NCBI GenBank assembly: GCA_030679255.1
Contig: JAUXTO010000042.1
Location: 44,714-108,713 of the forward strand
DNA length: 64,000 bases
Origin: Candidatus Gottesmanbacteria bacterium
GTDB taxonomy: Bacteria; Patescibacteriota; Microgenomatia; UBA10105; UBA927
Direction: 5' to 3'
In this document: one piece after another, positions 6,924-54,914 of the stretch
How positions within the stretch are numbered: position 1 is the stretch's first letter
Layout: every line of letters starts with the position of its first letter
Position numbers and translations under genes: made by a program
The notes under the pieces: model-generated
Databases searched by the model: none
What the model was told of the DNA's origin: nothing
What the model saw: the letters and a program-made list of their open reading frames with translations, nothing else

Positions 6924-6998
6924 GGGTCGGTAGCTCAACGGTAGAGCAGTAGCCTTTTAAGCTATTGGTTCTGAGTTCGAATCTCAGCCGACTCACCA
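6924..6998 (+). tRNA. tRNA-Lys (anticodon UUU)
   Basis: Manual fold: acceptor GGGTCGG/CCGACTC (one G-U), D-arm GCTC-AACGGTA-GAGC, anticodon stem GTAGC/GCTAT loop CTTTTAA, T-arm CTGAGTTCGAATCTCAG, encoded CCA. Confidence 0.85.
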
Positions 6999-16500: not shown

Positions 16501-16823
16501 AGCTTATTCAGTTGTGCGTCGATCTGTGGTTGATAGTCCGTCATCACTGCACGGGAGGGGATGATGTTACTCGAATATATTCCTTGTTTCTGAAGGCTTT
16601 GCTGAGAAATTGTATTTTGCTTTAATTGATTGGAAAAATTAGTTACTGCATCATTGACCCTGTTCACAAAGGGTTGTACCTGGGGCTGCAGTTGTTTCTG
16701 TACCCACGACGCTGGTGTTGGATTCTGCTGGATAAACGACTGAGCCTGACCGAACAGTTTACTTGCGGTATTTTGAATTTTCGTTGCTACTTGTTGACTT
16801 AGAGTGTCCCATAGATTAGCCAT
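13545..16823 (-). CDS. very large Q-rich hypothetical protein (virion structural-like); start set at MANLWDTLSQ, ORF track extends to 16991
   Basis: About 1090 aa; 8-nt overlap with stop of upstream gene; Q/N-rich N-terminus, K-rich C-terminus; no family recognised by eye. Confidence 0.5.
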   Translation of the reverse strand: MANLWDTLSQQVATKIQNTASKLFGQAQSFIQQNPTPASWVQKQLQPQVQPFVNRVNDAVTNFSNQLKQNTISQQSLQKQGIYSSNIIPSRAVMTDYQPQIDAQLNKLPTLKWGVGNPIKPEGFDVKTGDIAKFSLNLLTGGSYSPEEQSFLTKANRGQTTFTPKEIAAGKQLQETDRLAIMGFTKTPEIQNALSGRLSLTKTPEEASIVYNEFADKLIKTGAKDDLQALRATLNKELVNLVGGSGDYKKDYAIIQTMKNDTQVGSIIRTIEDKIFTIDEALSKVPKTPNERLSNLLNYPQELGSRGFTARQIRFIDAKEAQRILDDGISPLDHSSYDKMVAANVEEAKRYVKKAFTANDPQAIGRVQNVIDPTFTNVQNKVNIVDYLRTPEQVLQKIGLGDEAKYLRSQYESYLTQLPDEIKRISDWQKRVPPESNERIFRALDGENVGLNPVEGRVAMEIRGYLADWATKLKLPPSKQISNYITHIWTKGAVEGEFDPALAKLIDQKVAGGVYDPFLLMRKSDRIDYLKDTWAALDAYTKRAVRKYNLDPALEALKAKSPSLELSQYKYLQKLTDRINLRPTEIDTLIDNFIKSTPIGYRFGPRPVTALSQSIRQTVYRGTLGLNVSSALRNLSQGANTYAELGERWTATGYLKLARNWGSNELERVGVLKDSFIQDRNIGVYKNILTKLDEGLFYLFDKAEKINRGAAYYGAKAKALSQNMSEQQAIEYAKGIVRKTQFVFGSIDTPLALSSDINKTLLQFQSFNIKQGEFLLTKVAQRDIAGLVRYVGATLVMAKILKDAFGMKLDLLPINPRLTPSLQAGQATGQMLFGEEQTREEGKRNLIKVAPAFFPGGVQIRKTVEGLQSYNKGESTTPTGNIRFPVEQTFPNYVKSMLFGQYSTPQAQTYFDSNARPLSANQSELVRGGTKTYSDFMDQQAETKEDLKARQTVGLTGQPASSGTKLFYVSPSGTVTSVDVSYIPQKPKMVGNYEVDKQALSKYKSALTTQKNKISAAVTAGVIDVSQVKEVLSDLSTSKARLTVKKIPKVKMIALKKFTLKKPKRLAKFKKYKVPKLKTITSIKYPKIKKEL

Positions 16824-18078
16824 AGATCGGTTGACCGTTTTGATCGTATCCTTTGAATACTTTTCCGGATATTTGTCCTGTGTAATTTGGTGTGTTTTGT
16901 CCGTTTGATGAATTGATTGATAACGGTGATGCTGGAGTGGTTGTCGTTTGATTGAAGTAGTTATTGAGTGCTGATTGTGAGCCTTGACCACTCATTTGCA
17001 TCTGTCGGGCATAGGTATCTAACGCTGTTGCAGCCTGGCTTCGTTGAAGTTCTAGGGTTTGCTCAAATTGAATTTTCTGAGAGTTTATTTGAAACACTTC
17101 ATTCCGGAGAGTCTGTAAAGCAGAGAGAGAAGCTTGGGCTTTTGCAGATGCTATTTGTGACCTGCTTTGTGAAATAGAAAGAAGTTTGTTTTGAAAGTCA
17201 CTCTTTGCTTGAGAGAAAGCAGAATCCGTATCGTATTTTAGCTTCGTCTTAGCGGTAGAGTAGCCACGATCAAGATCATATTTTTGAGTGTCAATCTGTG
17301 CCATAGTGTCGCTATAGGATCGCTGTGTTAGTCCCATCTGACGTTGCTGTTCAACAGATGAAAGTTCACTGGCTGCTTCACCTGCGGACGTACTACCACC
17401 AAAGCGTTGCTGATATCCACGACGTAATTCGTCATACAGTCTTCGTGCTGCTGTAAGCGCATCTTCTTTTCGATACCCTGCGCTTGTTGCGTTGCGATCA
17501 AGAGTAGAAAGACCAGAGGTATTTTGATCATTGAGCATCTGAGTGTTCACATCGAATTGCCCTTGGATTGATTTTTGTACATCGGGATATTGAGCATTCA
17601 GAGTATTTTCAGCTTCTGTGAGATATTGAAACGAGGGGTTATACAGTGCATCAATCTGGGATTGAATATCGGGCTGGCCTTGGCCTTGTTGTGCCATGAG
17701 TTCTCGATAGCGGGATTCTTGTGAGGGGTTACGATCCATCTTAGATAATTGTTGAAGTTCTGAATCACTTGGGCCTGTGGGGGTTGTGTTCGCTCTTGTT
17801 GTTACTCCATTAACCTGACCCGTTCCTGTGTTATTGTTTCCACCGGTAACCATTCCTGAGGGCTTGGGTTGTATGTAAGGGGTGTCGTATGTTCCGGTAA
17901 CTGGTTTTCCTGCGATCGTGTTAGCTAGACCTGTGACGGGTCCAGCGCCTACGACATTAGGAGTCACCATGCTTCCAATATTTGCCACGGTTTGACCCAG
18001 TGCCTGACGTGCCTGCCCAGAACCAAATTGATTGACTGCAAGATCGTACCATCCACCTAAATTTTGAATTGCTCCCAT
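16816..18078 (-). CDS. Q/N/S/T-rich hypothetical protein (start at MGAIQNLGG with aggaga RBS)
   Basis: About 420 aa low-complexity protein; RBS AGGAGAA 5 nt upstream of ATG at 18078. Confidence 0.45.
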   Translation of the reverse strand: MGAIQNLGGWYDLAVNQFGSGQARQALGQTVANIGSMVTPNVVGAGPVTGLANTIAGKPVTGTYDTPYIQPKPSGMVTGGNNNTGTGQVNGVTTRANTTPTGPSDSELQQLSKMDRNPSQESRYRELMAQQGQGQPDIQSQIDALYNPSFQYLTEAENTLNAQYPDVQKSIQGQFDVNTQMLNDQNTSGLSTLDRNATSAGYRKEDALTAARRLYDELRRGYQQRFGGSTSAGEAASELSSVEQQRQMGLTQRSYSDTMAQIDTQKYDLDRGYSTAKTKLKYDTDSAFSQAKSDFQNKLLSISQSRSQIASAKAQASLSALQTLRNEVFQINSQKIQFEQTLELQRSQAATALDTYARQMQMSGQGSQSALNNYFNQTTTTPASPLSINSSNGQNTPNYTGQISGKVFKGYDQNGQPIYG

Positions 18079-28168: not shown

Positions 28169-28464
28169 TTATATCCCATAATGTGATATAATATGGGGTA
28201 TGAGTGATGAACAAGATACATGGCTAAGTATTAAAATTAAACCAACAAATTTGACGGCAGACGTTAGTGCGCTGGATGCCAAATTGGAATCAACTTTTCC
28301 TGCTGGTGTGACACAACATTATGAAGATGGAAAACGAGCTAATAGACAAAACGTGTTGGTAAAAACGGTACTTTAGATTGTTCTTTTGCCCCATATCTAA
28401 ACAGTTATGCTTCTGGTAGCATAATCCGCATGAAAAAACACTCTGTTCTCACTGCCAAACCCCT

Positions 28465-29409
28465 ATGCAGCGGTGGGGAAAAACTGCTGCAGGAAATATC
28501 CGCTGGTACTGCCCACGATGTCTTCATTCGCGCATTAGAAGACGGAAGGATGTTTCGATTCGATCGGCACATGCTCTGTTTGTCACATGGCTTACCGGTA
28601 CAGCATCGTTAGGAGAAATTGCTCGTTCAAAAAGGGTTTCTGTCAGAACACTTGAACGCCGATTTTCGTGTTTCTTGGAAAAAAAGAGCCCGGTTACATG
28701 GTCATCATCTGTCGATGTTCTTATCATCGACGGCCTCTATTTAGAACCCAGAGAGAACTGTGTTCTTATTGGAAAAACAAAAACAACAATCGTTCAGTGG
28801 TTGTTTGTCCAACGAGAAAACTATGGTTCATGGCGTCTCTTTTGCCAACATATTCCTGCCCCGCGCGTGGTCGTCTGTGACGGTCAACGAGGGATGCGGG
28901 CAGCTTTGCGTGACGCATGGCCGCATACTCTTGTCCAACGGTGCATGGTCCATATATTTCAGTTAGCAACAGCACGATTAACAAGGAGACCAAAAACTCC
29001 TGCAGGGCAAGACCTGCGTGTTTTGGTCCAGCAGCTTTTTGCTATCCATACAAGGAGACAGAAACGCCGATGGATCAGGAAGTACAGAAAATGGAGAAAA
29101 CGATATGACCATTTCCTCAAGGAACGAACAATTGGGCAGCAACCAGGCAAGAAACGGACGTGGTGGTATACCCATAAACGGATCCGGTCTGTGCGTACGC
29201 TCCTGGACAATGCACTCCCAGAATTATTTACCTACATCGGACACCCGGAAATCCCAAGGACCACGAACCACGTCGAGGGAGGAATCAATAGTAGGCTTTC
29301 AGAATTACTGTACCGTCATCGAGGAATATCCTTGGAGAAAAAGGAGGTGTTGGTTGCAACGTTCTTGGGGAGGAAACAGGGGCAAAAACCAACACGAAAT
29401 GTCTATTAG
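28465..29409 (+). CDS. IS1595-family-like DDE transposase
   Basis: 314 aa; N-terminal Zn-ribbon RWYCPRC; C-terminal TTNHVEGGINSRLSELL (TNxxEsxNxxlK) typical of IS1595/ISXO2-like transposases. Confidence 0.55.
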   Translation: MQRWGKTAAGNIRWYCPRCLHSRIRRRKDVSIRSAHALFVTWLTGTASLGEIARSKRVSVRTLERRFSCFLEKKSPVTWSSSVDVLIIDGLYLEPRENCVLIGKTKTTIVQWLFVQRENYGSWRLFCQHIPAPRVVVCDGQRGMRAALRDAWPHTLVQRCMVHIFQLATARLTRRPKTPAGQDLRVLVQQLFAIHTRRQKRRWIRKYRKWRKRYDHFLKERTIGQQPGKKRTWWYTHKRIRSVRTLLDNALPELFTYIGHPEIPRTTNHVEGGINSRLSELLYRHRGISLEKKEVLVATFLGRKQGQKPTRNVY

Positions 29410-30043
29410 CTCTGGAAAACACAGTTTTAGACCTGAAGCTGATGGCACTTATGAAGTAAGATTATTAGTGCCCTCAGTGAGACCTCACGTAGAACAAACA
29501 ATCTATTCACACAATTTTGAGCTGATTCAAATCATGGAGCAACCGGGTGATAAAGTTCTTCCTCTAACCTCTCGAGTTTAATTTTTTATTATTGTAGCTA
29601 GTAGTAAGTACTCTGTTTCCACAAAATTCAAACCCATTTCAAAGAAAATTTGTGATCGCCAGGCTCCAGCATGGTCGTCCTCCGCGCTTTCGTTTAAAAA
29701 CATTTTTCTACCTCCCTACAAGATAAAAGCCCCGCCTCGGCGGAGCAAAAAAATCCTACTATTATCGATAGACCATACGCAGATGATATACTCGAAATAT
29801 GTATTTAGTTCTTATAGCGTTATCGCTTATTACTCTTGTTGTATTAGATTGGAAAGTTGGATTACCCGTGGCTATTATAGTATTTTGTTTAGATAGGGTT
29901 ATAGATCGTTCTAGAAGAGAGTTAGAGGAAAAAATCAATAAACCACTGTAATTCGATTCTTTGTTTGAATAGGCCCATCAATCTTCCAGGTTAAAGTGCT
30001 AAAATAAGCGCAGCAATTCATTGTGTTGAAAGGAATGTACCTA

Positions 30044-33602: not shown

Positions 33603-33636
33603 ATCACAAAATTATGCACGTGCATAATTTTGTGAT
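33603..33636. promoter_or_regulatory. 34-bp perfect palindrome (candidate operator) in tdk/orf84 divergent region
   Basis: ATCACAAAATTATGCAC|GTGCATAATTTTGTGAT, 44 nt upstream of tdk start. Confidence 0.5.
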
Positions 33637-33823
33637 GATATGGTTTGATGGGATTGACGCGACAGGCATTCGGGTATATTTTTAATAGTGATAGATTAAT
33701 TTAGATACGAAAGGTTCATATGCCAGGTAGTAGATTTTCGATATTTTTCGATATGAAAAATGTTAATTTTGTTAAAAATACCTTACTAACAATACAAAAC
33801 ATAGTTATCTGAGTTTATGCATC

Positions 33824-33853: not shown

Positions 33854-34108
33854 ATGGCGGAAACTATCGATGAACAGGTTTCGGTAAATTTATTATTTAA
33901 CCATATTAAGCGGTCGGCTGCTCCGACGTCTCTTTACTGGCGGGGGCGGCGGTATACGATCACGAGCGTCGGACTGCATCACACCACGCGGGAAGGGCGG
34001 ACGCTCCTCCATATTTTTTCCGTAACGGACGGAACAACGGCTTTTAAGCTGGAGCTTAATTCAGAAACGCTTGGGTGGAGGCTATTGGAGATAGACGCTC
34101 AAGCATAA
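33854..34108 (+). CDS. hypothetical protein upstream of Y-family polymerase
   Basis: 84-aa ORF co-oriented with downstream polymerase. Confidence 0.4.
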   Translation: MAETIDEQVSVNLLFNHIKRSAAPTSLYWRGRRYTITSVGLHHTTREGRTLLHIFSVTDGTTAFKLELNSETLGWRLLEIDAQA

Positions 34109-34244
34109 GCACCAAATTCCAATATTCAAGCATCAAATAAATCACAAGCATCAAATGAAAATAAACAAGAAGTAATTCGTGTTGTTTATATATTAGTACT
34201 TGTGTTCGTTTGTTTGGTGCTTGGCACTTGATGCTTGGAATTTC
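34105..34244. repeat. dispersed imperfect-palindromic intergenic repeat, copy A
   Basis: words CCAAATTCCAA / CAAGCATCAA / TTGGTGCTTGGCACTTGATGCTTGGAATTT shared with copies at 39650 and 47818; ends at start codon. Confidence 0.5.
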
Positions 34245-35594
34245 ATGAATACATTTAGTCTTTTCCCTCCTACTATCATGCACGTCGATCTCAATTCGTG
34301 TTTTGCCAGTGTGGAGCAGCAGGCAAACCCGTTACTTCGGGGAAAACCAATTGTCGTAGCCGCCTACACGACCGACAGAGGGTGTATTTTAGCAGCGTCT
34401 GTAGAAGCCAAACGCCTGGGCATCAAAACCGGCATGCGGGTGGGGGAAGGGAAAGCATTGTACCCGCGTCTCGTCGTCCTTGCACCGGATCCGGAAAAGT
34501 ACCGGTGGGTCAATAGGAAGCTCTTCGCGCTTCTTTCCTCCTACACGCCGCATATTTCGGTCGAATCCATTGATGAGATGGTGATGGATTTACGCGACAC
34601 TCCAGCGTTAGAGCGTCACATCAAAGGATTGACAGGGTCTCGCCCTGTCAATAAACAGGGCGAGACCCCTACAAGCCAACACATTGACGCTATGATTTGT
34701 ATTGGTAAAAATATCAAGAAGCGCATCAAGGATGAGATTGGCGAGTGGCTCACGGTCTCGATCGGCATTGCGCCCAATCGATATCTGGCCAAAGTCGCCT
34801 CAGGGCTCCATAAGCCCAATGGACTGGATATCATCACCCAAGAAAACATTGAGGAGATCTTTACCGGACTTCGGCTTGAGGATTTATGCGGTATCAAGGA
34901 AGGCAACGCAGGGAGACTTCGGATGGCCGGCATCAATACGCCGGTTGAGTTTACCCGCGCTTCGGCAGCAGCACTGGTTGCCGCACTTCACAGTAAAACA
35001 GGTTTGAGTTGGTGGCAGCGGCTCCATGGGTATGAAGATGGGGTCATGTATAAAAATTTTAATCAATCAGAAGATATTCAGAAAACTTTCGGGCAATCAT
35101 TTGCTCTGGGTACCCCGCGCGTGCCGAGCGATCCACAGACAGCAAAAATTATGGCTCAGCTCATCGTCAAGATGGGCCGGCGGCTTCGCGGTGCGGGCTT
35201 TGTGGCTCAGGCGTTGAGCGTGTCATTTTTATTTTCCGATTATTCTCATTGGGTGAAGAATATACGGACAACGGAGCCTCTGTTTGCCGATAGTGATTTT
35301 TTAGCGCATGCCGGTAAACTTTTAGTGATGGCGCCACATAAACCCGTGAGAATTCTTGCCGTGACCAGCTTTCATTTGAGCGCGCGCGGATCGGGGCAAA
35401 TAGGACTATGGAATACCGATGAGACGAAATGGAAAATTACTGATGCTCTGGATGCCATTGCCAATCGGTGGGGTGAGTTTGCGGTTACGCCGGGCCGCAT
35501 GTTGGGGATGGAACCCGCTTCGACTCGCGAGTCAGGGCGAGTTCAGCGAGGCGAGCAGAAGGTGCAGGACAGGATAGCGTTCGGGAAAGTATAA
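34245..35594 (+). CDS. Y-family DNA polymerase (DinB/UmuC-like); start trimmed to MNTFSL
   Basis: MHVDLNSCFASVEQ...GKPIVVA...catalytic palm motifs of Y-family polymerases. Confidence 0.8.
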   Translation: MNTFSLFPPTIMHVDLNSCFASVEQQANPLLRGKPIVVAAYTTDRGCILAASVEAKRLGIKTGMRVGEGKALYPRLVVLAPDPEKYRWVNRKLFALLSSYTPHISVESIDEMVMDLRDTPALERHIKGLTGSRPVNKQGETPTSQHIDAMICIGKNIKKRIKDEIGEWLTVSIGIAPNRYLAKVASGLHKPNGLDIITQENIEEIFTGLRLEDLCGIKEGNAGRLRMAGINTPVEFTRASAAALVAALHSKTGLSWWQRLHGYEDGVMYKNFNQSEDIQKTFGQSFALGTPRVPSDPQTAKIMAQLIVKMGRRLRGAGFVAQALSVSFLFSDYSHWVKNIRTTEPLFADSDFLAHAGKLLVMAPHKPVRILAVTSFHLSARGSGQIGLWNTDETKWKITDALDAIANRWGEFAVTPGRMLGMEPASTRESGRVQRGEQKVQDRIAFGKV

Positions 35595-35689
35595 AAATTA
35601 TAAAAATTTAGTTCTTGACGAATGAATACTCGGTAGGGTAGTGTAGAGATACAATTTAATATATCCAGAGTGACGGGCTAAACGGAGAA

Positions 35690-35830
35690 CTCACTTCATA
35701 GCCGTCCAGCAACCGACCCCGAGCTTGTCGAAGGTCACGGTGCTCCCATGAGCCCCCGCAATAGGCGGGGAATGATAGGCCCCATAGGGAAACAAAAAAC
35801 TCTCCTTAGGGAGAGTTTTTTCGTATTGAA
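35690..35830 (+). promoter_or_regulatory. structured GC-rich leader with intrinsic terminator (35794-35821) upstream of metK; riboswitch-like, class not assignable
   Basis: stems GACGGGCTA/TAGCCGTC and CCCCGC-aatag-GCGGGG; terminator AACTCTCC-ttag-GGAGAGTT+T6 ending 35 nt before metK ATG. Confidence 0.4.
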
Positions 35831-39173: not shown

Positions 39174-39653
39174 ATGGAAGTAGAAAATGCCCCCGATGTC
39201 ACCAAAATTATGCGTCAGATTCTCAAGCGGACACCGTTTGAGCATGTGAAAGCAGATCAGATAACCTGTATGCGCAGTACCGGTGCCACAAGCCGGGCCT
39301 ACGCACGCATATGGAGTTTTCCCAAAATTTGGCAGAAAGCACTCGCGCACCCTCCTCATTACATCATTGAAGTTCTTGCGCATCACTTTGACAAACTCAG
39401 GGATGACGATAAAATCCGCACGATCATCCATGAGCTCATGCACATTCCGAAGAATTTTTCCGGAGCATTGGTTCCCCATCATGGGAGATACCATCGGATA
39501 GACAGAAGGACGGTAGAGAAATTGTTTCAAGTGTACGGTGTAAATTCTCAGCCAAAGGCTGATCAGCCTTTGGCTGACAAATCACAAGCTTCAAGCACCA
39601 AGCAAACGACGAAAACACCAATAAATAAAATCCGAAACTTTCTTAATTTGTAA
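39174..39653 (+). CDS. putative zinc metallopeptidase (HExxH)
   Basis: 159 aa; IIHELMH motif. Confidence 0.45.
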   Translation: MEVENAPDVTKIMRQILKRTPFEHVKADQITCMRSTGATSRAYARIWSFPKIWQKALAHPPHYIIEVLAHHFDKLRDDDKIRTIIHELMHIPKNFSGALVPHHGRYHRIDRRTVEKLFQVYGVNSQPKADQPLADKSQASSTKQTTKTPINKIRNFLNL

Positions 39654-39702
39654 TTCGTTTAGAATTTGTTTGGAATTTGGTACTTGTTGCTTGGAATTTA
39701 TG
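39650..39702. repeat. dispersed intergenic repeat, copy B (right-arm only)
   Basis: GTAATTCGTTTAGAATTTGTTTGGAATTTGGTACTTGTTGCTTGGAATTT ending at holA ATG. Confidence 0.45.
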
Positions 39703-44158: not shown

Positions 44159-46453
44159 ATGCTACCCAAATTTGTTGTTTGGTTTAACGAAGTAGACAAG
44201 GAAGATATTCCTCTTGTGGGCGGCAAGGGGGCAAATTTAGGCGAGATGACCAAGGCGGGGTTTCCGGTGCCGGGAGGATTCATTGTCACCTCTGCGGCAT
44301 ATAAACATTTTCTCGACGTGACCCATTTGCGGTCGAAAATCGAATCAGCACTGCATAATTTGGATGTCAGTGACAGCAAAAGACTCGACATGGTGTCTCA
44401 AGCTGTCCGCGAGCTTATCACCGGCTCCGAATTTCCCCGCGAAATTGCCAATGAAGTGATTACTGCCTATTTCAAGCTCGATGAAGGATTAGTCAAGCAC
44501 GCTATGGTTGCCGTACGGTCATCGGCAACCGCTGAGGATCTACCCGGCGCATCATTTGCCGGTCAACAGGAAACGTTTCTCAATGTGTATGGGGAGGCCA
44601 ATCTCATTGAAAAGATTAAAGAAGCCTGGGCATCGCTCTTTACTTCCCGTGCTATTTTTTACCGGGCGACAAATAAATTTGATCACTTCAGAGTCGCGAT
44701 AGCTATCCCCGTACAACGCATGATTGAATCGGCCGCCTCCGGCATCATGTTTACGATTGATCCAGTGACGAATGATAAGAGCGTCATTGTCATTGAAGCG
44801 ATCCATGGATTGGGTGAAATGATCGTGCAAGGAGCCGTCACCCCGGACCACTACGAAGTGGATAAGGCTACGTTTGCGATCAAAATGAAAACCGTCAAAA
44901 CACAGGAAAAAAAGATGGTGAAGAAGGGAAATGGGAATGAAATTAAAATTATCAGTAAAAAAGATGGTTCGAAACAAAAAATTAGCGATGCGCACATTGT
45001 CGCTCTTGCCAAAATTGCCAAAAAGCTTGAAGAGCATTATTTCTTTCCGCAGGACAGTGAATGGGCGATCGAAAAGGACAAGATTTACATCGTGCAAACC
45101 CGTCCGGTGACGACGACGGGGAAACAGTCGTCAGTCGTCAGTCGTCAGTCTTCAGACAGTCTGATAGCTGATAGCAGAAAGCTGACAGCTTTATTAAAAG
45201 GAGACCCTGCGAGCCCCGGTATGGCCAGCGGTCCGGTGAAAATACTTTCTTCTCCCAAAGAGATCCATAAAGTGATGGCGGGAGATGTGTTGGTTGCTGA
45301 GATGACCAATCCGGATTATGTCCCCGCTATGCGTAAAGCAGTTGCTATCCTCACTGAACGCGGAGGAAGGACTTCCCACGCGGCGATCGTATCGCGGGAA
45401 CTGGGAATTCCGGCCGTCGTCGGCGCGAAAGGAGCAAAAAAGCTCCTGAAAGACGGTATGATCATCACGGTCAATGGAAGTACGGGAGAGGTTTACCGCG
45501 GAGCGGTACGATCAAATACTACAAATACTACCAATACTACCAACGAAAAAAATTCGAAAATTAAAACGGCGACGAAGGTATATGTCAATCTCGCCGAACC
45601 CAGTCGCGCCAAAGAAGTCTCAAAATTACATGTGGATGGGGTTGGGCTACTTCGGGCTGAATTTATGATGGCGGGTATCGGGACACACCCCAAAAAGTTT
45701 ATTGAAGACAAAAAACAAGCGCTGTTTGTATCCCAGTTGTCCGAGGGTATGGGGACTATTTGTGAAGCGTTTTCCCCCAGGCCGGTCATCTACCGGGCGT
45801 CGGACTTTCGGACCAATGAATTCCGTAATCTCAAAGGCGGCAAAGCATATGAACCCGCTGAGGATAATCCGATGTTGGGATTCCGCGGGGCAGCCCGCTA
45901 TATCGCTGACCCAAGGGTTTTTGAACTTGAACTGGAGGCCATCAAGGTTGTGCGGAACAAAAGAGGCTTCAAAAATTTACATCTCATGATTCCGTTTGTC
46001 CGGTCTCCCAAAGAAATGCTCGAGGTCAAGCAAATTGTGGCAGGGAATGGTCTTATCCGCTCATCGAACTTTAAATTGTGGATGATGGTCGAAATTCCGA
46101 CCAACGTTATCCTCATCGAGGATTATCTGGACATCGGACTCGATGGAATATCCTTTGGATCGAATGATTTGACCATGCTTATTTTGGGGACGGACCGGGA
46201 TAATAGCGAAGTTGCCCATGACTTCCGGGAAACGGATCCGGCTGTCATGTGGGCATTTGAACGCGTCATAAAGGCTTGTGTCAAACGGGGCGTGACGACT
46301 TCTATGTGCGGACAGGCGCCGTCCGATTATCCGGATCTTGTGGAAAAGCTTGTTGAGTGGGGAGCGACCAGTGTCTCGGTGAATATCGATAGCGTTGATA
46401 ATGTCCGCCGGACGATTGCAGAAGCGGAAAAGAAGAGAGTCAATAAAGTCTGA
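44159..46453 (+). CDS. ppsA: phosphoenolpyruvate synthase (pyruvate, water dikinase); start trimmed to MLPKFVVWF
   Basis: LVGGKGANLGEM ATP-grasp, GGRTSHAAIVSRELGIPAVVG phospho-His domain, PEP-utilising C-terminal domain. Confidence 0.85.
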   Translation: MLPKFVVWFNEVDKEDIPLVGGKGANLGEMTKAGFPVPGGFIVTSAAYKHFLDVTHLRSKIESALHNLDVSDSKRLDMVSQAVRELITGSEFPREIANEVITAYFKLDEGLVKHAMVAVRSSATAEDLPGASFAGQQETFLNVYGEANLIEKIKEAWASLFTSRAIFYRATNKFDHFRVAIAIPVQRMIESAASGIMFTIDPVTNDKSVIVIEAIHGLGEMIVQGAVTPDHYEVDKATFAIKMKTVKTQEKKMVKKGNGNEIKIISKKDGSKQKISDAHIVALAKIAKKLEEHYFFPQDSEWAIEKDKIYIVQTRPVTTTGKQSSVVSRQSSDSLIADSRKLTALLKGDPASPGMASGPVKILSSPKEIHKVMAGDVLVAEMTNPDYVPAMRKAVAILTERGGRTSHAAIVSRELGIPAVVGAKGAKKLLKDGMIITVNGSTGEVYRGAVRSNTTNTTNTTNEKNSKIKTATKVYVNLAEPSRAKEVSKLHVDGVGLLRAEFMMAGIGTHPKKFIEDKKQALFVSQLSEGMGTICEAFSPRPVIYRASDFRTNEFRNLKGGKAYEPAEDNPMLGFRGAARYIADPRVFELELEAIKVVRNKRGFKNLHLMIPFVRSPKEMLEVKQIVAGNGLIRSSNFKLWMMVEIPTNVILIEDYLDIGLDGISFGSNDLTMLILGTDRDNSEVAHDFRETDPAVMWAFERVIKACVKRGVTTSMCGQAPSDYPDLVEKLVEWGATSVSVNIDSVDNVRRTIAEAEKKRVNKV
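45125..45185. repeat. coding tandem repeat (CAGTCGT)x3+ within ppsA linker
   Basis: cagtcgtcagtcgtcagtcgtcagtc...ctgatagctgatagc encoding SSVVSRQSSDSLIADS. Confidence 0.6.
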
Positions 46454-46522
46454 AAGTCTATAAAGTCTATAAAGTCTATAAAGTCTAATGTTCTTTTTCG
46501 ACTTTCGACTTTCGACTTTAGG
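46446..46522. repeat. tandem repeats (AAAGTCTAT)x4 followed by complementary (CGACTTT)x3 immediately after ppsA stop; can fold as long hairpin (terminator-like)
   Basis: aaagtctataaagtctataaagtctataaagtcta...cgactttcgactttcgacttt. Confidence 0.6.
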
Positions 46523-46532
46523 GACTTATTGT

Positions 46533-47804
46533 ATGTCTACCAAAATTTACACCATCATTGCGCGGGAAATTCTTGATTCCCGTGGTAATCCGACGATAGA
46601 AACTATGGTAATCCTCGAAAGCGGATACCGTGGCGTTGCGGCGGTTCCTGCCGGGACATCACTCGGAAAATATGAAGCGAAGGAGCTGCGCGACGGCGAT
46701 GGCGCACGCTATTATGGCATGGGTGTATTAAAGGCGGTCAATGCGGTCAACACGACGATCGTATCGAAGCTGCGTGGTATGGACGCTCTCGACCAAGCGG
46801 GGATTGACCAGGCGATGATTGTCCTGGACGGTACGGAAGATAAATCTAAACTTGGGGCCAATAGCATCCTCAGTGTCTCGCTGGGTGTCGCTGCTAGTGC
46901 GGCCGCCGCGTCGCGCATCCCTCTCTACCGGTACCTGAATACACTCTTTACTCCGCTTGTGCCGACGACCCTTGCAAAAATTCCCACGCCGACGGTCAAT
47001 GTCATAAACGGCGGCAAGCACGGCGCCGGTAATTTAGATTTTCAGGAATTTCAGGTGATACCGGCGAGTAATCGTAGTTTCACGGATGCGCTCCGGCTTG
47101 CCGTGGAAGTCTACCAAAAACTCAAAGGGATACTCCAATACCGTAATGCCTCGACTGCTGTGGGATATGAAGGCGGGTTTGCGCCAAATCTCTATACCAA
47201 TATCGATGCGATGCAGCTTCTTCAGGAAGCGGTGCGCGCCACACCATACCGGTTTGGTGTCGACGTTTTTTTTGGGCTCGATGTAGCGTCCAGTCATTTT
47301 AAAACAGCCCGTGGGTACCAGATAAAAGATAAGGAGACTCCGATGAGTCCCAAGGATTTTGTTACTTATCTGGCAGATCTCCATAAAAATTACCGCCTGC
47401 TTATTCTTGAAGACGCGCTTGATGAAGATGATTGGGAGGGCTGGATGGAACTCACCGCCCGGTTTGGTGCTGAGGTGATGATCGTCGGAGATGATTTGCT
47501 TGCGACGAACCCCAAACGGCTCGAGAAGGCGATTGCCCAAAAAGCATGTACCACGATACTCCTCAAACCCAATCAAATCGGCACACTCACCGAATTTTTC
47601 CGTGTGGTCGCTATGGCCAAAAAAAATCATATTCAAACCATTGTTTCCCATAGGAGCGGTGAGACCAATGATGCGTTTATTGCCGATCTCGGCGTTGCCG
47701 TACAGGCCGACTATGTCAAATTCGGCGGCCCCACTCGTGGAGAGAGAGTAGCCAAATATAACCGTTTGTTGCAGATAGAAGCAGAGCTATTTTCACAAAA
47801 ATAA
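46533..47804 (+). CDS. eno: enolase; start trimmed to MSTKIYTII
   Basis: IIAREILDSRGNPTIE N-terminus and enolase C-terminal motifs. Confidence 0.9.
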   Translation: MSTKIYTIIAREILDSRGNPTIETMVILESGYRGVAAVPAGTSLGKYEAKELRDGDGARYYGMGVLKAVNAVNTTIVSKLRGMDALDQAGIDQAMIVLDGTEDKSKLGANSILSVSLGVAASAAAASRIPLYRYLNTLFTPLVPTTLAKIPTPTVNVINGGKHGAGNLDFQEFQVIPASNRSFTDALRLAVEVYQKLKGILQYRNASTAVGYEGGFAPNLYTNIDAMQLLQEAVRATPYRFGVDVFFGLDVASSHFKTARGYQIKDKETPMSPKDFVTYLADLHKNYRLLILEDALDEDDWEGWMELTARFGAEVMIVGDDLLATNPKRLEKAIAQKACTTILLKPNQIGTLTEFFRVVAMAKKNHIQTIVSHRSGETNDAFIADLGVAVQADYVKFGGPTRGERVAKYNRLLQIEAELFSQK

Positions 47805-47817
47805 GCACATGTGTGTA

Positions 47818-47945
47818 TAAATTCCAAGCATCAAGCGCCAAGCACCAAACAAACGAATACAAGCACCAATATACAAACGTTTAGAATTTGGAATTTTGAT
47901 ATTGGAATTTGTTTGGTAATTGGAATTTGGTACTTGATGCTTTTT
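47818..47945. repeat. dispersed imperfect-palindromic intergenic repeat, copy C
   Basis: AAATTCCAAGCATCAAGCGCCAAGCACCAAACAAACGAA... / ...TTTGTTTGGTAATTGGAATTTGGTACTTGATGCTT arms. Confidence 0.5.
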
Positions 47946-47947
47946 TT

Positions 47948-49588
47948 ATGGTCAAACCAGTTGTCCTCATTGTTTTAGATGGTTGGGGTCTCGCGCCCCC
48001 CGGGCCCGGGAACGCCATTAGTCTCGCGCATCTTTCGGCGATGCCCTTTCTTTGGCACACCTACCCCCATACACAACTTGCCGCATCCGGCGAAGCAGTC
48101 GGCCTACCGTACGGCGAAGATGGGAATACAGAAACCGGACACATCAATATCGGAGCCGGACGCACCGTTTATCAGGATCTTCCGCGTATTTCTATGGCGG
48201 TCAAAGACGGAAGTTTTTTCACCAATGATGCACTCCTTGCCGCCGTATCCCACGCGCGGACTAATCACTCTGCTATTCATCTTATGGGAGTGGTGTCTGA
48301 CGGCGGGGTCCATGCAAGCCGCGAGCATGTGTATGCAATTCTCGAGCTCATTAAGAAGCAGCAGTGCGAGAGTCCCGTCTATATCCATGTATTTACGGAT
48401 GGCAGGGACGCTTCTCCTACATCAGGCGAGCGGTTTGTCGGTGAATTAGAAGACCGGATACATGCCCTTGGGGTGGGTCAGATTGCGACCATCATCGGCC
48501 GGTATTTTGCGATGGACCGTGACCGTCGGTGGGACCGGACGGAGCGGGCGTATCGAGCGCTTACCGAAATAGACGGAGGAACGATTGCCGTGTCGGCAAC
48601 CATTGCAATCCGGGATTCCTATGCGCGTCATGTGACCGATGAATTTATCGAGCCGGTCATTATCGCAGATACGTCCGGCAATCCATTACCGAGAATTCAG
48701 GATAATGATGCGGTGATTTGTTTTAATTTCCGTATTGACCGGCCGCGCCAATTGACGCGCGCACTCGTGCTTCCGAACTTTGAGACGGTAGAGCCCTCGA
48801 CCGCGTTTGATCCTTATGCGGTCAAATATTATCACCGCCATGTGGTCCTTCAAGATGACCGTGCTCATCCGTTTACCCGGTCTGTCGTCCGGAAAAACCT
48901 GTTCGTGGTCACCATGACTCAATACGAACCAAATCTTCCTGTGAGTGTCGCATTTCCGCCTCAAAAGGTATTTGCCCCACTGGGAAGTGTATTTGCTGAC
49001 CATAAAATTCGACAGCTGCGCGTCTCAGAAACGGAAAAGGAGCGCTTTGTCACCTACTATTTTAATGGTATGCGTGAAGTCGCCTACGAGAGGGAGGACC
49101 GGCTTATCATTCCATCAGTGAACGTCCCCACGTATGATTTGAAGCCGGAGATGGCAGCTCTCGAGCTCACCGAACACGTGTTACACCGTATCGTCATTGG
49201 GGTATATGGATTTATCCTCATTAATTTTGCAAATCCTGATATGGTTGCCCATACCGGAAATATCGCGGCTTCGGTCAAGGCATGCGAAGTAACCGATTCC
49301 TGTCTGGGATCTATCGTCAAGGCAGTTATGGCTCAAGACGGCACTTGCGTCATCACCGCGGATCATGGTAACGTGGAAGAGATGCTTGGGGTCGGTGGAG
49401 AAATGGACACCGAGCATTCGACGTTTTCCGTTCCTTTCATTATGGTACATTCCTCGTTACAGGGGTATCCACAAGTGCTTTCTACTGGCAAATTGGGAGA
49501 TATAGCTCCCACCATCCTCTCTCACATGCATCTCCCTATTCCTCCGGAAATGACCGGTAAAAATTTATTACAGGATTTTTCTTTGTAA
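47948..49588 (+). CDS. gpmI: 2,3-bisphosphoglycerate-independent phosphoglycerate mutase; start trimmed to MVKPVV
   Basis: VLIVLDGWG N-terminus, iPGM Mn-binding pattern. Confidence 0.85.
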   Translation: MVKPVVLIVLDGWGLAPPGPGNAISLAHLSAMPFLWHTYPHTQLAASGEAVGLPYGEDGNTETGHINIGAGRTVYQDLPRISMAVKDGSFFTNDALLAAVSHARTNHSAIHLMGVVSDGGVHASREHVYAILELIKKQQCESPVYIHVFTDGRDASPTSGERFVGELEDRIHALGVGQIATIIGRYFAMDRDRRWDRTERAYRALTEIDGGTIAVSATIAIRDSYARHVTDEFIEPVIIADTSGNPLPRIQDNDAVICFNFRIDRPRQLTRALVLPNFETVEPSTAFDPYAVKYYHRHVVLQDDRAHPFTRSVVRKNLFVVTMTQYEPNLPVSVAFPPQKVFAPLGSVFADHKIRQLRVSETEKERFVTYYFNGMREVAYEREDRLIIPSVNVPTYDLKPEMAALELTEHVLHRIVIGVYGFILINFANPDMVAHTGNIAASVKACEVTDSCLGSIVKAVMAQDGTCVITADHGNVEEMLGVGGEMDTEHSTFSVPFIMVHSSLQGYPQVLSTGKLGDIAPTILSHMHLPIPPEMTGKNLLQDFSL

Positions 49589-49600
49589 GAAAGGAACAGT

Positions 49601-50707
49601 ATGAAAACAACTATCTCTGTCATCAAAGCAGATACCGGTTCCGTCGGAGGACATAATAGGCCAAGCAACGCAATGCTTGCCAAAGCACAGGAACAAGTCG
49701 ATATGGCGGTCCAAAAGGGTTTATTGAGCGATGCCCGTATTACCTTTACCGGCGACGATATTGCCCTCCTCATGATTCACGGCAAAGGCGTAGATAATCC
49801 GGATATTCATAAACTCGCCTGGGATACGTTTGTCGCAACGACGGCGATAGCTAAGTCTCAGGGACTTTACGGGGCGGGACAGGATCTCCTCAAAGATGCA
49901 TTTTCCGGCAACGTGCGGGGCATGGGACCGGGGAGCGCGGAAATTGAACTTGAGGAGCGACCAGCTGAACCATTTGTCGTGTTTGCGGCAGACAAATGCG
50001 GTCCCGGTGTTTTTAATTACCCGCTCTTCGAAGCATTTGCCAATCCGTATCACAACGCAGGGCTCCTCCTCGCGCCGGAGATGAAAGATGGATTTACGTT
50101 CACGATCATGGATGTCAATAATGTTGATGCCGATCGGGTGATTACCCTTAAAGTTCCGTCGGATTATTATGATATCTGTACGCTTCTGCGCGATCCTAAT
50201 CATTATGTCATCGAGAGCGTCACGGAAAACGCGAGCGGGTTGCAGGCGGCAGCGTCATCGACAAGCAGACTTCATAATATATCCGGGAAATATGTAGGTA
50301 AGGATGATCCGGTGGCAATCGTGCGGACCCAAAAGACCTTTCCATCGACCGGAGAGATTCTTTCTCCGTGGGCCCTCGCACACTTTACGCTAGGAGATAA
50401 CCGTGGGTCCCATCATGTCGCCGTCATGCCGGTCAAGCAAAATAGTATAATTTCATTTTTTGACGGACCGACGATCGTATCGGCCGCCGGGTACTGTGTC
50501 CATGAGGGGAAACTCACGGAGGCCGTGGATCTTTTTGATCAGCCATTTTGGGATCTGATCCGGACAAAAGCGTCGGAAAAGACCCTATCTATCCGGGCGC
50601 AAGGATTTTACGGACCTGCTATGGCAGGGATGGATGAGCTCGAGTATACCGGAGTCGTCCAAAATCTCAAACGGTTGGGTGAGAAATTTGTCATACGACA
50701 GAAATGA
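49601..50707 (+). CDS. fbp: fructose-1,6-bisphosphate aldolase/phosphatase (archaeal-type class V FBPase)
   Basis: MKTTISVIKADTGSVGGH N-terminus characteristic of FBP aldolase/phosphatase. Confidence 0.75.
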   Translation: MKTTISVIKADTGSVGGHNRPSNAMLAKAQEQVDMAVQKGLLSDARITFTGDDIALLMIHGKGVDNPDIHKLAWDTFVATTAIAKSQGLYGAGQDLLKDAFSGNVRGMGPGSAEIELEERPAEPFVVFAADKCGPGVFNYPLFEAFANPYHNAGLLLAPEMKDGFTFTIMDVNNVDADRVITLKVPSDYYDICTLLRDPNHYVIESVTENASGLQAAASSTSRLHNISGKYVGKDDPVAIVRTQKTFPSTGEILSPWALAHFTLGDNRGSHHVAVMPVKQNSIISFFDGPTIVSAAGYCVHEGKLTEAVDLFDQPFWDLIRTKASEKTLSIRAQGFYGPAMAGMDELEYTGVVQNLKRLGEKFVIRQK

Positions 50708-52434
50708 AATCAGACGTGTACACAAAGCACCCGGACCCCAAGAAGCCCGCTAATCTCGATGACTATGATCGGGTCTATCGTTCGTTTGACTGGAAACAGG
50801 CCCGAAAGGAAATAGATTGGTTTGACGGGGTAACGATGAATGCCGCCTATAACGCGATAGACCGGCATACGCAGACCTGGCGGAAAAATAAAATTGCCCT
50901 CTACTGGGAAGACGAAGACGGTTCCACAAAACAATACACATTCGAACAACTTTCTCTGTTGTCCAATAAAATGGGTAACATCCTCAAGGATTTTGGAGTC
51001 ACCCGTGGACAAAGGGTTTTTATTTTCCTTCCCCGTGTACCGGAACTCTATATTAGTTTCTTAGGGATACTCAAGATCGGAGCAATAGCGGGTACGCTTT
51101 TTAGTGCTTTTCAGGAACAGGCCCTTGCAGACCGGCTAGGCAATAGCGATGCGGAAGTGGTGATCACGAACACTGAGCTTAAAAAACGGATTGACAAAGT
51201 CCGGAGTAAACTCCCTGCGCTCAAACATATTATTACTATAGATAGCCCGGACTTTGCTACATCCATGGAACACGCAAGTGATGAACTGCATATTGCCCAC
51301 ATGGATCCGGATGAGTATGCGTTCATGCTCTATACGAGTGGCACGACCGGTAAACCGAAAGGTGTCGTTCACGTCCACAGAGCAATCCTCCAGGAGCATA
51401 TGACCGCTAAGTGGGTTTTGGATCTGCGGGACGACGATACCTATTGGTGCACTGCTGATCCGGGTTGGGTGACGGGCATTGCCTATGAAATACTCGGCAG
51501 CTGGTCATGCGGAGTGACCGCGGTCGTTTTTGCCGGACGGTTTGATCCAAAACGGTGGTATCAACTATTAGATAAATACAAGGTCACGGTTTGGTATACG
51601 GCCCCCACGGCTATCCGCATGCTGATGGCCGCAGGGAGCGCTCTTGTCAAAGAATTCGATCTCTCGGCACTGCGTCATATGTGTTCCGTCGGAGAGCCGC
51701 TTAATCCCGAAGCCATCACCTGGGCGATCAAGACGTTTGATAAGCCGTTCCACGACACGTGGTGGCAGACGGAGACGGGTGCGATCTCTATCGCCAATTT
51801 TCCCTGCCTGGATATCAAAATTGGCTCCATGGGCAAACCCGTTCCGGGTATACACGCGGCAATCGTCGATGATACTGGGCGCGAGTGTAAACCCAACGAA
51901 GAAGGACATATTGCCATCAAGCCCAAATGGCCGTCCATGATGCATACCATTTGGAGAAGACCCCAGAAATACAAAAGTTATTTTGAACACGGGTGGTACA
52001 TCAGTGGCGATCGAGGGATGCGGGACGCAGACGGATACTTCTGGTTTATCGGGAGGGCCGATGATGTCATCAAAACTGCCGGAGAACGTGTGGGCCCGTT
52101 TGAAGTGGAATCCGCGCTTGTGGCTCACCCTGGAGTGGTAGAGGCAGGAGTCATCGGTAAGCCCGATGCCATGCGGGGGGAAATCATTAAAGCGTTTGTG
52201 GTACTTACGGAGAGTCAAAAGTCAAAAGTCAAAAGTCAAAAGTCTGCTGATGCATTTAAGGAGGAGCTTTCGCAGTATGTGAAAAAGCATCTGGCTGGAC
52301 ATTCCTACCCCCGTGAGATAGAATTCATCGATAAGTTGCCCAAAACCCGTTCCGGCAAGATCATGCGCCGTATTTTGAAAGCCAAAGAAATGGGCTTGCC
52401 GATAGGGGATACGAGCACATTAGAGGAGTATTGA
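50704..52434 (+). CDS. acs: AMP-forming acyl/acetyl-CoA synthetase
   Basis: YTSGTTGKPKGV AMP-binding motif; contains coding (GTCAAAA)x4 repeat. Confidence 0.8.
   Translation: MKSDVYTKHPDPKKPANLDDYDRVYRSFDWKQARKEIDWFDGVTMNAAYNAIDRHTQTWRKNKIALYWEDEDGSTKQYTFEQLSLLSNKMGNILKDFGVTRGQRVFIFLPRVPELYISFLGILKIGAIAGTLFSAFQEQALADRLGNSDAEVVITNTELKKRIDKVRSKLPALKHIITIDSPDFATSMEHASDELHIAHMDPDEYAFMLYTSGTTGKPKGVVHVHRAILQEHMTAKWVLDLRDDDTYWCTADPGWVTGIAYEILGSWSCGVTAVVFAGRFDPKRWYQLLDKYKVTVWYTAPTAIRMLMAAGSALVKEFDLSALRHMCSVGEPLNPEAITWAIKTFDKPFHDTWWQTETGAISIANFPCLDIKIGSMGKPVPGIHAAIVDDTGRECKPNEEGHIAIKPKWPSMMHTIWRRPQKYKSYFEHGWYISGDRGMRDADGYFWFIGRADDVIKTAGERVGPFEVESALVAHPGVVEAGVIGKPDAMRGEIIKAFVVLTESQKSKVKSQKSADAFKEELSQYVKKHLAGHSYPREIEFIDKLPKTRSGKIMRRILKAKEMGLPIGDTSTLEEY
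52213..52244. repeat. coding tandem repeat (AGTCAAA)x4 in acs
   Basis: agtcaaaagtcaaaagtcaaaagtcaaaagtct encoding SQKSKVKSQKS. Confidence 0.6.
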
Positions 52435-54278: not shown

Positions 54279-54914
54279 TCAGTTAATCGAAAATTTGCGG
54301 ATAAGTCCCACACAGCGTCCCTGGATCTTGACGTGGGTCGCAAATATCGGAGACATCTGAGCATTAGCCGGCATGAGCTTAATCCGATCTTTTTCAAAAA
54401 ATATCCGTTTCAGGGTCGCGAGCCCATTTGGGAGTAAAGCGACGACAATATCTCCATTCTTAGCATCCTGCTGGTGCTGGATGACGACGAAATCGCCGTC
54501 CAGAATACCGTCTTCAATCATCGAGTTACCTTTCACTTGTAATATGTAGTGGGGTTTGCCTGCCGATACCATGGCAGGGGCAACCGATACATAATAATTA
54601 GGGTCTGTATAGGGCTCCAGGGGACTACCGGCGGCGATAAAGCCCAAGACGGGCAGTTCGATAGCTCCTTCGTTCCCTCCGGCTTGCGACCGGTAGGTGT
54701 CTTTGACGACTTCCAGTCCCCGTGCCGTACCGTCAAGCTTTTTGATAAATCCTTTTATCCTCAGACGGTCGATATGCTCGTGGACCGTCGCCGGTGAGCG
54801 TATCCCCATGGAATCGCCGATTTCTTTGAGGGTCGGCGCGTACCCATAGCGTTGGATGAACTGCGTGATAAAATCAAGAAGCTGGCGTTCACGGACATAG
54901 AGTATAGCTGGCAT
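54279..54914 (-). CDS. lexA: LexA repressor
   Basis: N-terminal winged-helix, S24 peptidase (VKGNSM...K) domain; start trimmed to MPAILYV. Confidence 0.8.
   Translation of the reverse strand: MPAILYVRERQLLDFITQFIQRYGYAPTLKEIGDSMGIRSPATVHEHIDRLRIKGFIKKLDGTARGLEVVKDTYRSQAGGNEGAIELPVLGFIAAGSPLEPYTDPNYYVSVAPAMVSAGKPHYILQVKGNSMIEDGILDGDFVVIQHQQDAKNGDIVVALLPNGLATLKRIFFEKDRIKLMPANAQMSPIFATHVKIQGRCVGLIRKFSIN

Follow-up and report, generated by a model that had tools for sequence, protein, structure and literature searches.

Several families of bacterial MITEs form RNA hairpins, among them Correia/NEMIS in Neisseria, ERIC/IRU in enterobacteria, RUP, and Nezha. REP sequences and the REPIN-RAYT system provide intergenic hairpins of ~100 nt that consist of two inverted units and occur in many copies per genome. 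Rickettsia palindromic elements (RPE) are palindromic repeats of reduced genomes that can be read as an in-frame peptide and insert mainly inside genes. Hairpins built from 7-bp units are known in filamentous cyanobacteria, where the STRR hairpins are found for example between hupS and hupL; roles in the stability of transcripts or in translational coupling have been suggested for them (PMC2670836). Heterogeneous intergenic heptameric SSRs have been described in Xanthomonas and Nostoc, with 70–75 cases of two convergent arrays that are able to form stem-loops (Rehm et al., 2015, PMC4692102); they lie between the same gene pairs in relatives while their length and sequence vary strongly (PMC4692102). 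Direct repeats of the heptamer TAACTGA occur in Beggiatoaceae, cyanobacteria, and Bacteroidetes, mostly end 1 nt upstream of a start codon, and have been suggested to play a translational role (MacGregor, 2015, PMC4679880). Here we analyzed a repeat family in a 64-kb window (the whole stretch of DNA under study, 64,000 nt) from Candidatus Gottesmanbacteria and compared it with these systems.

Three palindromic elements at gene junctions

The window carries three dispersed, imperfectly palindromic elements of about 125–150 nt each in short gaps between neighbouring genes, namely between orf84 and the Y-family polymerase gene (polY), between a phage-type metallopeptidase gene (mpep) and a holA-like gene, and between eno and gpmI. 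Copy 1 (34109–34244, minus orientation) is a full-length family member that is inverted versus copy 3; its main hairpin spans ~34114–34243, and it is flanked by the orf84 stop codon TAA (34106–34108) and the polymerase ATG at 34245. Copy 3 (47805–47947, plus orientation) is located between the eno stop codon TAA (47802–47804) and the gpmI ATG at 47948. It has the conserved end AAATTCCAAGCATCAAG at 47818 and a remodelled right arm that terminates in T7, and its sequence is identical in an independent Logan assembly. Copy 2 (39577–39699, minus orientation, with the insertion starting at ~39550) is degenerate and truncated and abuts the holA-like ATG at 39700. The original prediction had placed this copy at 39650–39702; an element is indeed present there, but it is larger and includes a degenerate left arm at ~39577–39625 as well as a perfect, GC-rich palindrome of 30 nt (39548–39577, TCAGCCAAAGGCTGA followed by TCAGCCTTTGGCTGA) at the left edge of the mpep/holA insertion. 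The left arm is read as a C-terminal extension of ~38 aa of the metallopeptidase ORF, with the stop codon TAG at 39651–39653; the Pfam match of this ORF ends at residue 105 of 159.

In the alignment, copy 3 runs opposite to copies 1 and 2. In a common orientation all copies share one well-conserved end, AAATTCCAAGCA[T/A]CAAG..CCAAACAAA (..CCAAGCACCAAACAAACGAA), and the second end reads ..TTGAATATTGGAATTTGGTGCTTA. The right arm of copy 1 (34184–34243) is 92% complementary to the left arm of copy 3 (47819–47878) over 60 nt. The word CAAGCAYCAA occurs nine times in the window, eight of them in the three loci (0.34 expected), and a 25-mer searched with up to three mismatches matches copies 2 and 3 only (0 expected). 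The three loci are also the top local inverted repeats of the whole window. The dispersed family of three imperfect palindromes with common words, as originally predicted, is thus confirmed by word counts, by the 92% match over 60 nt, and by hairpin folding (see below). The copies are not duplicated flanks, since the flanking sequences are unrelated. The source genome was examined over ~70 kb, and no further copies were found in the ~0.5 kb to the left and 6 kb to the right of the window along the source contig.

Hairpin folding and the heptamer lattice

RNA folding of the arms, which had been recommended as a check, gave a long hairpin at each locus. The predicted plus-strand hairpins of copies 1, 2, and 3 have energies of -40.7, -26.0, and -38.9 kcal/mol (z = -4.3, -1.5, and -4.3, respectively). 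The minus strand folds with similar energies, and neither strand is consistently preferred. Each arm is a lattice of degenerate heptamers, NNNNCAA in the 5' arm and WRYTTGK in the 3' arm. The 3'-arm unit W-R-Y-T-T-G-K is a consensus over 80 arms from many loci, and the 5' arm is its complement, A/C-rich and G-poor. TRF reported period 7 at 47824–47848 and 47880–47930. Detectors based on a composition switch or on RNAfold were too unspecific, and a heptamer-chain detector was used instead, in which TTG cores are mostly 7 nt apart (steps of 7, 4, 11, or 14) with 5–7 units per arm; it matched the three loci and nothing else in the 64 kb, and gave no match in shuffled sequence. A candidate conserved apex motif, AAACGTTT, was rejected. 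Only 5 of 26 elements have it (9 of 26 when one or two additional central bases are tolerated), and it is explained by two abutting lattice words, hence it is not an independent feature.

A fourth junction hairpin (46437–46528) occupies the ppdk/eno junction, with (AAAGTCTAT)n in its left arm, which contains the ppdk stop codon, and (GACTTTC)n in its right arm. It belongs to a separate word family (AAAGTC/GACTTT; z = -3.2), and related hairpins are found at the same junction in two relatives (L306 and L309; relatives carry L numbers throughout). The three junctions discussed above hold other hairpin "flavours" in other relatives, made of CGAA/TTCG, CTAA/TTAG, or TTGGATAA words. Period 7 is the commonest among the tandem repeats of the clade (46 of 187 arrays in 851 kb), and periods 14 and 21 account for 24 and 9 arrays. 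Heptamer and 9-mer arrays were also seen within coding linkers of PPDK and other genes, and tracts of CCAA words occur in the PPDK linkers.

Filled and empty sites in relatives

A metagenome scan with the PGM protein retrieved 80 syntenic relatives with 71–92% identity. In most of them the orf84/polY, mpep/holA, and eno/gpmI junctions are ATGA stop/start overlaps or gaps of 10–50 nt. Empty sites are also found in relatives that are 88–92% identical in protein, including L121 and L173 (PGM 92%) and L306 (GpmI 90%). The orf84/polY junction is an ATGA overlap or a gap of at most 15 nt in L124, L127, L130, L131, L150, L152, and L154, and the empty site reads ..CCATGA.. in L127 and L130. At mpep/holA the empty site reads ..CTATGA.. 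in L121, L173, L122, and L141; these four have 11 nt only at the position of the 30-nt palindrome, which was not seen in relatives. The eno/gpmI junction is an ATGA overlap in L306–L308 (GpmI 90%; relatives found via GpmI homologues), and L309 (GpmI 88%) carries at this junction a 153-nt element that is orthologous to copy 3. In L122 and L306 a family member is located after mgsA, where the window site is empty; the copy there is followed by a Shine-Dalgarno (SD) sequence and then by the next gene. The suggestion of a MITE-like repeat with insertion polymorphism between relatives was borne out by these filled and empty orthologous sites.

Copy 1 and the L309 eno/gpmI element differ in both locus and genome; they match at 86.5% identity over ~134 nt, and the coding genes of the window and L309 are 76–80% identical in DNA. 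The conserved half of copy 3 is identical to the orthologous L309 copy at 55 of 60 positions (92%), above the surrounding genes, and the right arms of the two orthologues differ by heptamer-scale rearrangement. Within-genome copies are mutual best BLAST matches in three genomes. The higher similarity of the conserved half is a hint of constraint or concerted evolution, neither of which is expected if the element is purely selfish. L306, whose site is empty, is a closer relative of the window than L309, whose site is filled; this implies either a precise loss in L306 or a second gain at one site.

A TGA direct repeat flanks the L309 copy (gaagTGAccatg...ctatggTGAaacc) and is intact in that copy only; the matching positions of copy 3 are TAA and TCA, and nothing convincing as a target-site duplication was seen at copy 2. 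Filled alleles have one extra codon after the ATG. GpmI begins with MVKP versus MKP, and PolY begins with MNTF or MSIF when the site is filled versus MIF, MDF, or MEF when it is empty, that is, with one residue more. The TGA repeat and the extra codon would fit an insertion at the TGA of the ATGA overlap with a 3-nt duplication, in which the tip of the element provides the new ATG, a pattern that is intact in one copy only.

These comparisons show that the copies were pasted into pre-existing, very short junctions, mostly ATGA overlaps, in either orientation, and were gained or lost between close relatives. The filled and empty sites, the identity between loci, and the occurrence of both orientations together indicate that a defined unit was copied between loci, with gain and loss on the time scale of species divergence. 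Neither the window nor 49 element-bearing loci yielded a transposase or another mobilising gene whose ends match, no recurrent neighbour gene family was present across these 49 loci, and the annotated ORFs of the window include no RAYT (Y1 transposase)-like gene. The window has a single IS, an IS256-like remnant (28336–29412), which was considered as a mobiliser and rejected: its inverted repeats are unrelated. A BLAST search of copy 3 against PLSDB plasmids gave no match, and the low-complexity filter may hide matches in such a search.

Start codons and Shine-Dalgarno sequences

The elements end 0–1 nt upstream of the ATGs at 34245, 39700, and 47948, so the claim that they terminate at start codons stands while the predicted distance of 0–3 nt had to be corrected. 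The true starts on the plus strand are 34245–34247 for the Y-family polymerase gene, 39700–39702 for the holA-like gene, and 47948–47950 for gpmI, the last in agreement with an independent gene call. ORF extensions that begin at 34200, 39670, and 47909 had been regarded as artefacts of reading into the repeat, and they are: homologues align from residues 1–5 of the ATG-started proteins, and gpmI is called at 47948. The ppdk/eno hairpin is likewise read into an ORF, and the real eno ATG is therefore 46534 rather than 46488; the Eno proteins of relatives align from residue ~16.

The three downstream genes lack an SD sequence, as had been noted, but this is not a distinctive property. Even a 4-mer SD core is present at only 16 of 60 putative starts of the window, leaving ~73% without SD. 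A TATAAT-like box lies 6–12 nt ahead of the ATG in many window genes, which points to mRNAs that are leaderless or have short leaders. The element-free relatives also lack SD at the three junctions, the gene that follows the family member in L122 and L306 does have an SD, and the sequence adjoining the ATG differs between the two orientations of the element. The missing SD is an ancestral and genome-wide trait, and the flush position beside the ATG results from insertion into gaps of 0–15 nt. A role in SD-independent initiation, one of the functions offered in the original prediction, is not supported, given the abundance of SD-less starts in the window, the SD-less empty junctions, and the L122 and L306 members that precede an SD-bearing gene. 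Delivery of a promoter fared no better. A promoter and terminator consensus scan found no sigma-70-like promoter inside the elements, and the leaderless-promoter idea was dropped for this reason. None of the Rfam covariance models matched the elements, either at the gathering threshold or with E values of up to 10.

Similar hairpins in other phyla

We scanned one genome per species with an 18-mer pattern that forced 2.5 shared heptamers and did not force the hairpin partner, the lattice, or the polarity; about 277 chance matches are expected by our own estimate, and the counts are not prevalence estimates. Among the matches listed, same-style hairpins were found in MAGs of more than 10 phyla, including Patescibacteria, Planctomycetota, Verrucomicrobiota, Acidobacteriota, Nitrospirota, Aminicenantes, Chrysiogenota, Proteobacteria, and others. 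The polarity is a CAA arm followed by a TTG arm in 20 elements of other genomes and two in relatives, with none reversed (among the matches listed). The AT-rich shared vocabulary is retained in genomes of 58–67% GC among these matches, and the word TGACCAA/TTGGTCA recurs in other loci. Similarity between phyla reaches 90% over 51 nt in BLAST; it is partly inflated by the forced shared heptamers and is therefore not proof of homology. The gene settings in other genomes, among the matches listed, are co-directional in 16 cases, convergent in 5, and divergent in 3. The link with start codons on which the original prediction was built thus does not extend to same-style elements. Their presence between convergent (5) and divergent (3) genes is the outcome that the prediction itself had named as refuting, a plain MITE that is not associated with start codons.

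Phages were considered as vectors of the hairpin form and rejected, as only 2–3 of 10 AT-type pattern matches are real elements. Of the 95 matches to the first pattern, most are GC-richer arrays of the direct type, (NGCTTGN)n, located between phage genes. In phage contigs, direct (CAAGCNN)n arrays also follow stop codons; they are related to the hairpins but distinct from them.

These matches raise the possibility that the window repeat is a local representative of a so far undescribed class of intergenic hairpins found across bacteria, 5'-(NNNNCAA)n ... (WRYTTGK)n-3', with fixed polarity on either strand. We put this forward tentatively, as an idea with perhaps a modest chance of being correct. 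A limited literature search turned up neither a report of elements of this kind in CPR bacteria nor one of a CAA/TTG lattice class that spans phyla. If the class were real, it would call for very promiscuous spreading or for a universal factor that recognises the 7-nt unit; a single-strand binder of the cold-shock type, whose footprint is 7 nt, would be one candidate, and Rho, through the C-rich and G-poor first arm, another.

Discussion

The three loci are probably copies of one non-coding, non-autonomous palindromic repeat of ~135–150 nt that is specific to a Gottesmanbacteria lineage, is MITE-like or STRR-like, is tolerated at coupled junctions, and is essentially selfish or neutral. The unit may have been copied whole by a transposition-like or template-switch mechanism, after which its arms would have been remodelled locally by heptamer slippage. 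Judging from synteny and gap size, the element is likely co-transcribed within the operon, and the foot of the long predicted hairpin would place the stop codon of the upstream gene next to the start codon of the downstream gene. With stop and start kept adjacent, a translational coupling (termination-reinitiation) that existed before insertion could survive. Survival of coupling would explain both the tolerance of the elements at junctions and their adherence to SD-less ATGs. The element would then at most modulate mRNA stability or coupling and would not be a dedicated initiation device. In a simple folding model in which a ribosome is parked on the stop codon and the hairpin foot is melted, the predicted pairing of the AUG was ~0.5 before and after.

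Selection for a cis-acting RNA or DNA element, one that enforces coupling, stabilises or processes the polycistronic mRNA, or binds a protein that reads 7-nt single-strand units, with mobility as a secondary property, appears rather unlikely to us. It would account for a conserved half that is identical at 55 of 60 positions between orthologues and a full unit that is 86.5% identical between loci, against 76–80% for the DNA of genes, but recent copying or gene conversion can also give high similarity. The continued or repeated presence of hairpins at the same junctions of several relatives, in differing word flavours, is also in line with selection, as is the strict order of CAA arm and TTG arm (20 + 2 elements and none reversed, among the matches listed), and cyanobacterial 7-bp-repeat hairpins have been proposed to serve transcript stability or translational coupling (PMC2670836). 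However, essential-gene junctions are empty in close relatives, both orientations occur, and the convergent, divergent, and co-directional settings of same-style elements are roughly those of any intergenic DNA; the sense strand has no consistent energy advantage, and the ribosome-melting model showed no effect. The word flavours that differ between relatives at one junction could also be taken as a sign of a purely local origin, in which heptamer SSR slippage and fold-back (palindromic) duplication occur in place with no movement between loci. Heptamers dominate the tandem repeats of the clade, heptamer and 9-mer arrays exist inside coding linkers (PPDK and others), and polymerase slippage has been given as the origin of the heptameric SSRs of Xanthomonas and Nostoc, whose convergent inverted pairs differ between close relatives (PMC4692102). 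We nevertheless regard an exclusively local origin as improbable. The identities between loci (92% over 60 nt and 86.5% over 134 nt) include non-lattice sequence and therefore cannot come from shared vocabulary alone, and AT-rich elements with the same words are present even in genomes of 58–67% GC.

Two further functional readings give the element a dedicated role in expression. As a bidirectional intrinsic terminator or attenuator, made of an A-rich arm, a stem, and a U-rich arm, it would show the geometry that is in fact seen on both strands, with an A/C-rich 5' arm and a U/G-rich 3' arm. Copy 3 ends in U7, and 5 of 24 same-style elements in other genomes (among the matches listed) lie between convergent genes. 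The copies, however, immediately precede holA, gpmI, and polY inside conserved operons, and no promoter lies downstream of them; the U-tract is absent from copies 1 and 2; the convergent junctions of the window itself have no element; and the terminator scan made no call on the elements, whose stems are long and AT-rich rather than short and GC-rich. Termination is accordingly very improbable as their function. Least credible of all, and largely refuted by the comparative data, is a structured 5' leader or promoter-bearing element that gives SD-independent initiation to the downstream gene. All three copies end 0–1 nt before an SD-less ATG, the filled alleles of gpmI and polY have slightly different first codons, and TAACTGA repeats 1 nt before starts have been proposed as translational regulators in Beggiatoaceae (PMC4679880). 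But ~73% of the window starts have no SD and the same genes are SD-less in element-free relatives, opposite orientations give the ATG a different neighbouring sequence, the L122 and L306 members precede an SD-bearing gene, elements elsewhere lie between convergent genes, and no promoter consensus is present.

A mobile, tolerated palindromic repeat has practical consequences for annotation, as the elements create false N-terminal extensions (polY, holA, gpmI, and eno) and a false C-terminal tail of the metallopeptidase in a CPR genome. They also explain odd "spacers" of 100–150 nt in otherwise tightly packed operons. An ultra-compact, reduced genome still hosts an active palindromic repeat family, and its repeats land on ATGA overlaps without destroying either gene, which offers a natural test bed for coupling across a 130-nt hairpin. 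Should the cross-phylum heptamer-lattice class prove coherent, it would represent a non-coding element of unusually wide distribution, strictly polar and with neither a mobilising enzyme nor a function known.

Comparison with known elements

The elements resemble bacterial MITEs in being non-coding units of ~100–150 nt with no ORF of their own and with long terminal inverted repeats, the whole unit folding as a hairpin. The arms are 30–60 nt long and 73–92% complementary, with ends AAATTCCAAGCATCAAG and ..TTGGAATTTGGTGCTTA. Like MITEs they are dispersed, found in either orientation, intergenic, probably co-transcribed with their neighbours, and present or absent between relatives; there are three copies in 64 kb and other sites in L122, L306, and L309. 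They differ from MITEs in having heptamer-lattice arms, no cognate IS or transposase in the window or in the 49 loci, and no clear TA-type duplication. A classical MITE family is confined to one genus or species; same-style elements, by contrast, cross phyla.

Compared with REPINs, the elements have no GTAG-type REP head in the alignments, and their arms are multi-heptamer lattices. The likeness to RPE lies in the ~38 aa that copy 2 adds to the metallopeptidase and in the CCAA-word tracts of the PPDK linkers, but the elements studied here insert at gene junctions. They share with the TAACTGA repeats the intergenic heptamer arrays by start codons and a patchy cross-phylum distribution; the TAACTGA arrays are direct rather than inverted, gene-oriented, and made of another word.

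The cyanobacterial STRR hairpins are similar in architecture, being intergenic 7-bp-repeat hairpins between co-transcribed genes; here tandem 7-nt units are present in the arms, and co-transcription of the flanking genes is likely. The STRR2 word TTGGTCA/TGACCAA also occurs in these elements. The differences are the phylum, the degenerate WRYTTGK unit, and a unit of ~140 nt with distinct ends that is copied between loci. STRR hosts are heterocystous and carry the canonical words CCCCAGT, TTGGTCA, and CAACAGT, whereas the host here is Candidatus Gottesmanbacteria and only TGACCAA/TTGGTCA recurs. The Xanthomonas/Nostoc SSRs differ in being G-rich (GGGAATC) and are discussed as G-quadruplex formers, and no dispersed unit with conserved non-repeat sequence was reported for them (PMC4692102). 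The repeat family described here is real and is related to known kinds of element: the bacterial MITE is the closest kind by behaviour, and the STRR hairpins and the Xanthomonas/Nostoc heptameric SSRs are the closest by architecture.

Junction Hairpins in the Window and Its Relatives

At the same three gene junctions that carry copies 1-3 of the hairpin family (orf84/polY, mpep/holA and eno/gpmI), both close and distant relatives have hairpins of unrelated sequence, made up of TTGGATAA, CTAAATC, CGAAATC and CTAAT words. Such inserts were found in L306 (3112-3210), L310 (9884-10000), L136, L129, L163 and L126/L128. Since unrelated hairpins occupy identical junctions, these ATGA-overlap junctions appear to have been hit repeatedly and independently. 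A fourth junction hairpin, of a word family different from that of copies 1-3, lies between ppdk and eno in the window (46437-46534). Its left arm, (AAAGTCTAT)n, contains the ppdk stop and is complementary to (GACTTTC)n, with ATG 46488 lying in between. The true eno start is 46534 (ATGTCTACCAAAAT), matching L306 and L309, a relative with a filled eno/gpmI site; with this start the 438-aa Eno ORF is overlong by about 15 aa.

When window copy 3 was compared with its orthologue in L309, the conserved half of the element was identical at 55 of 60 positions (L309 2294-2353), the second arm was wholly remodelled, and the surrounding genes shared only 76-80% DNA identity. The high identity of the conserved half may reflect constraint, concerted evolution or re-insertion.

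Heptamer Arrays in Coding Sequences and Phage Contigs

Tandem heptamer, 8-mer and 9-mer arrays also occur inside coding sequence, at window positions 45125-45190, 45515-45543, 52213-52244 and 60111-60153 and at 5463-5494 of comparison locus L123. The inter-domain linkers of the window PPDK carry CAGTCGT (x4.4), CTGATAG (x4.3) and AATACTACC (x3.2), the gene at 50704-52434 has AGTCAAA (x4.6) close to its end, and the PPDK linker of L123 holds a CCAA-word tract typical of hairpin arms. In IMG/VR, the 18-mer pattern, which forces 2.5 shared heptamers, gave 95 matches. Phage contigs among comparison loci L201-L295 (terminase small subunit, GP88) contain long direct (NGCTTGN)n arrays, for example L217 1900-2110 and 2960-3400 and L288 3274-3379. 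On the strand of the genes, the arrays take the form (CAAGCNN)n; they lie immediately 3' of stop codons, and CCGGCCGG hairpins adjoin them.

Probable and Remnant Mobile Elements, Gene Starts and Possible Regulatory Signals in the Window

The region from 6924 to ~21000, adjoining tRNA-Lys (6924-6998), is a probable integrated mobile element. It encodes a large serine recombinase on the minus strand (6962-8515) and a D5-type primase-helicase (9267-10859), together with large ORFs that match nothing in Pfam, one of which spans 13545-16991 (1148 aa). An IS256/Mutator-family transposase remnant (28336-29412; 314 aa, partial domain matches) is bounded by 25-nt inverted repeats (88%), and its ends show no relation to the hairpin family.

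A SAM-I/IV riboswitch match at 35656-35805, which at 34.6 bits (E = 0.02) falls below the gathering score of 41.1, lies directly 5' of the SAM synthetase gene and overlaps the ORF start at 35748. Because of this overlap, and because alignments to Pfam and homologues begin near residue 30-39, the true metK start is probably downstream of 35748. Many SD-less window genes have TATAAT/TATACT-like boxes ending 6-12 nt 5' of the ATG (for example at starts 24337, 31158, 25159, 23557 and 30498), which suggests that leaderless or very short-leader mRNAs are widespread in this genome. The thymidine kinase gene and the orf84-polY operon diverge from a 294-nt intergenic region that contains a perfect-looking 34-nt palindrome, ATCACAAAATTATGCACGTGCATAATTTTGTGAT (33603-33636), which may be an operator, and near it a twofold repeat of TTTTCGATAT (33735-33754). 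A LexA gene is present at 54279-54914 on the minus strand.
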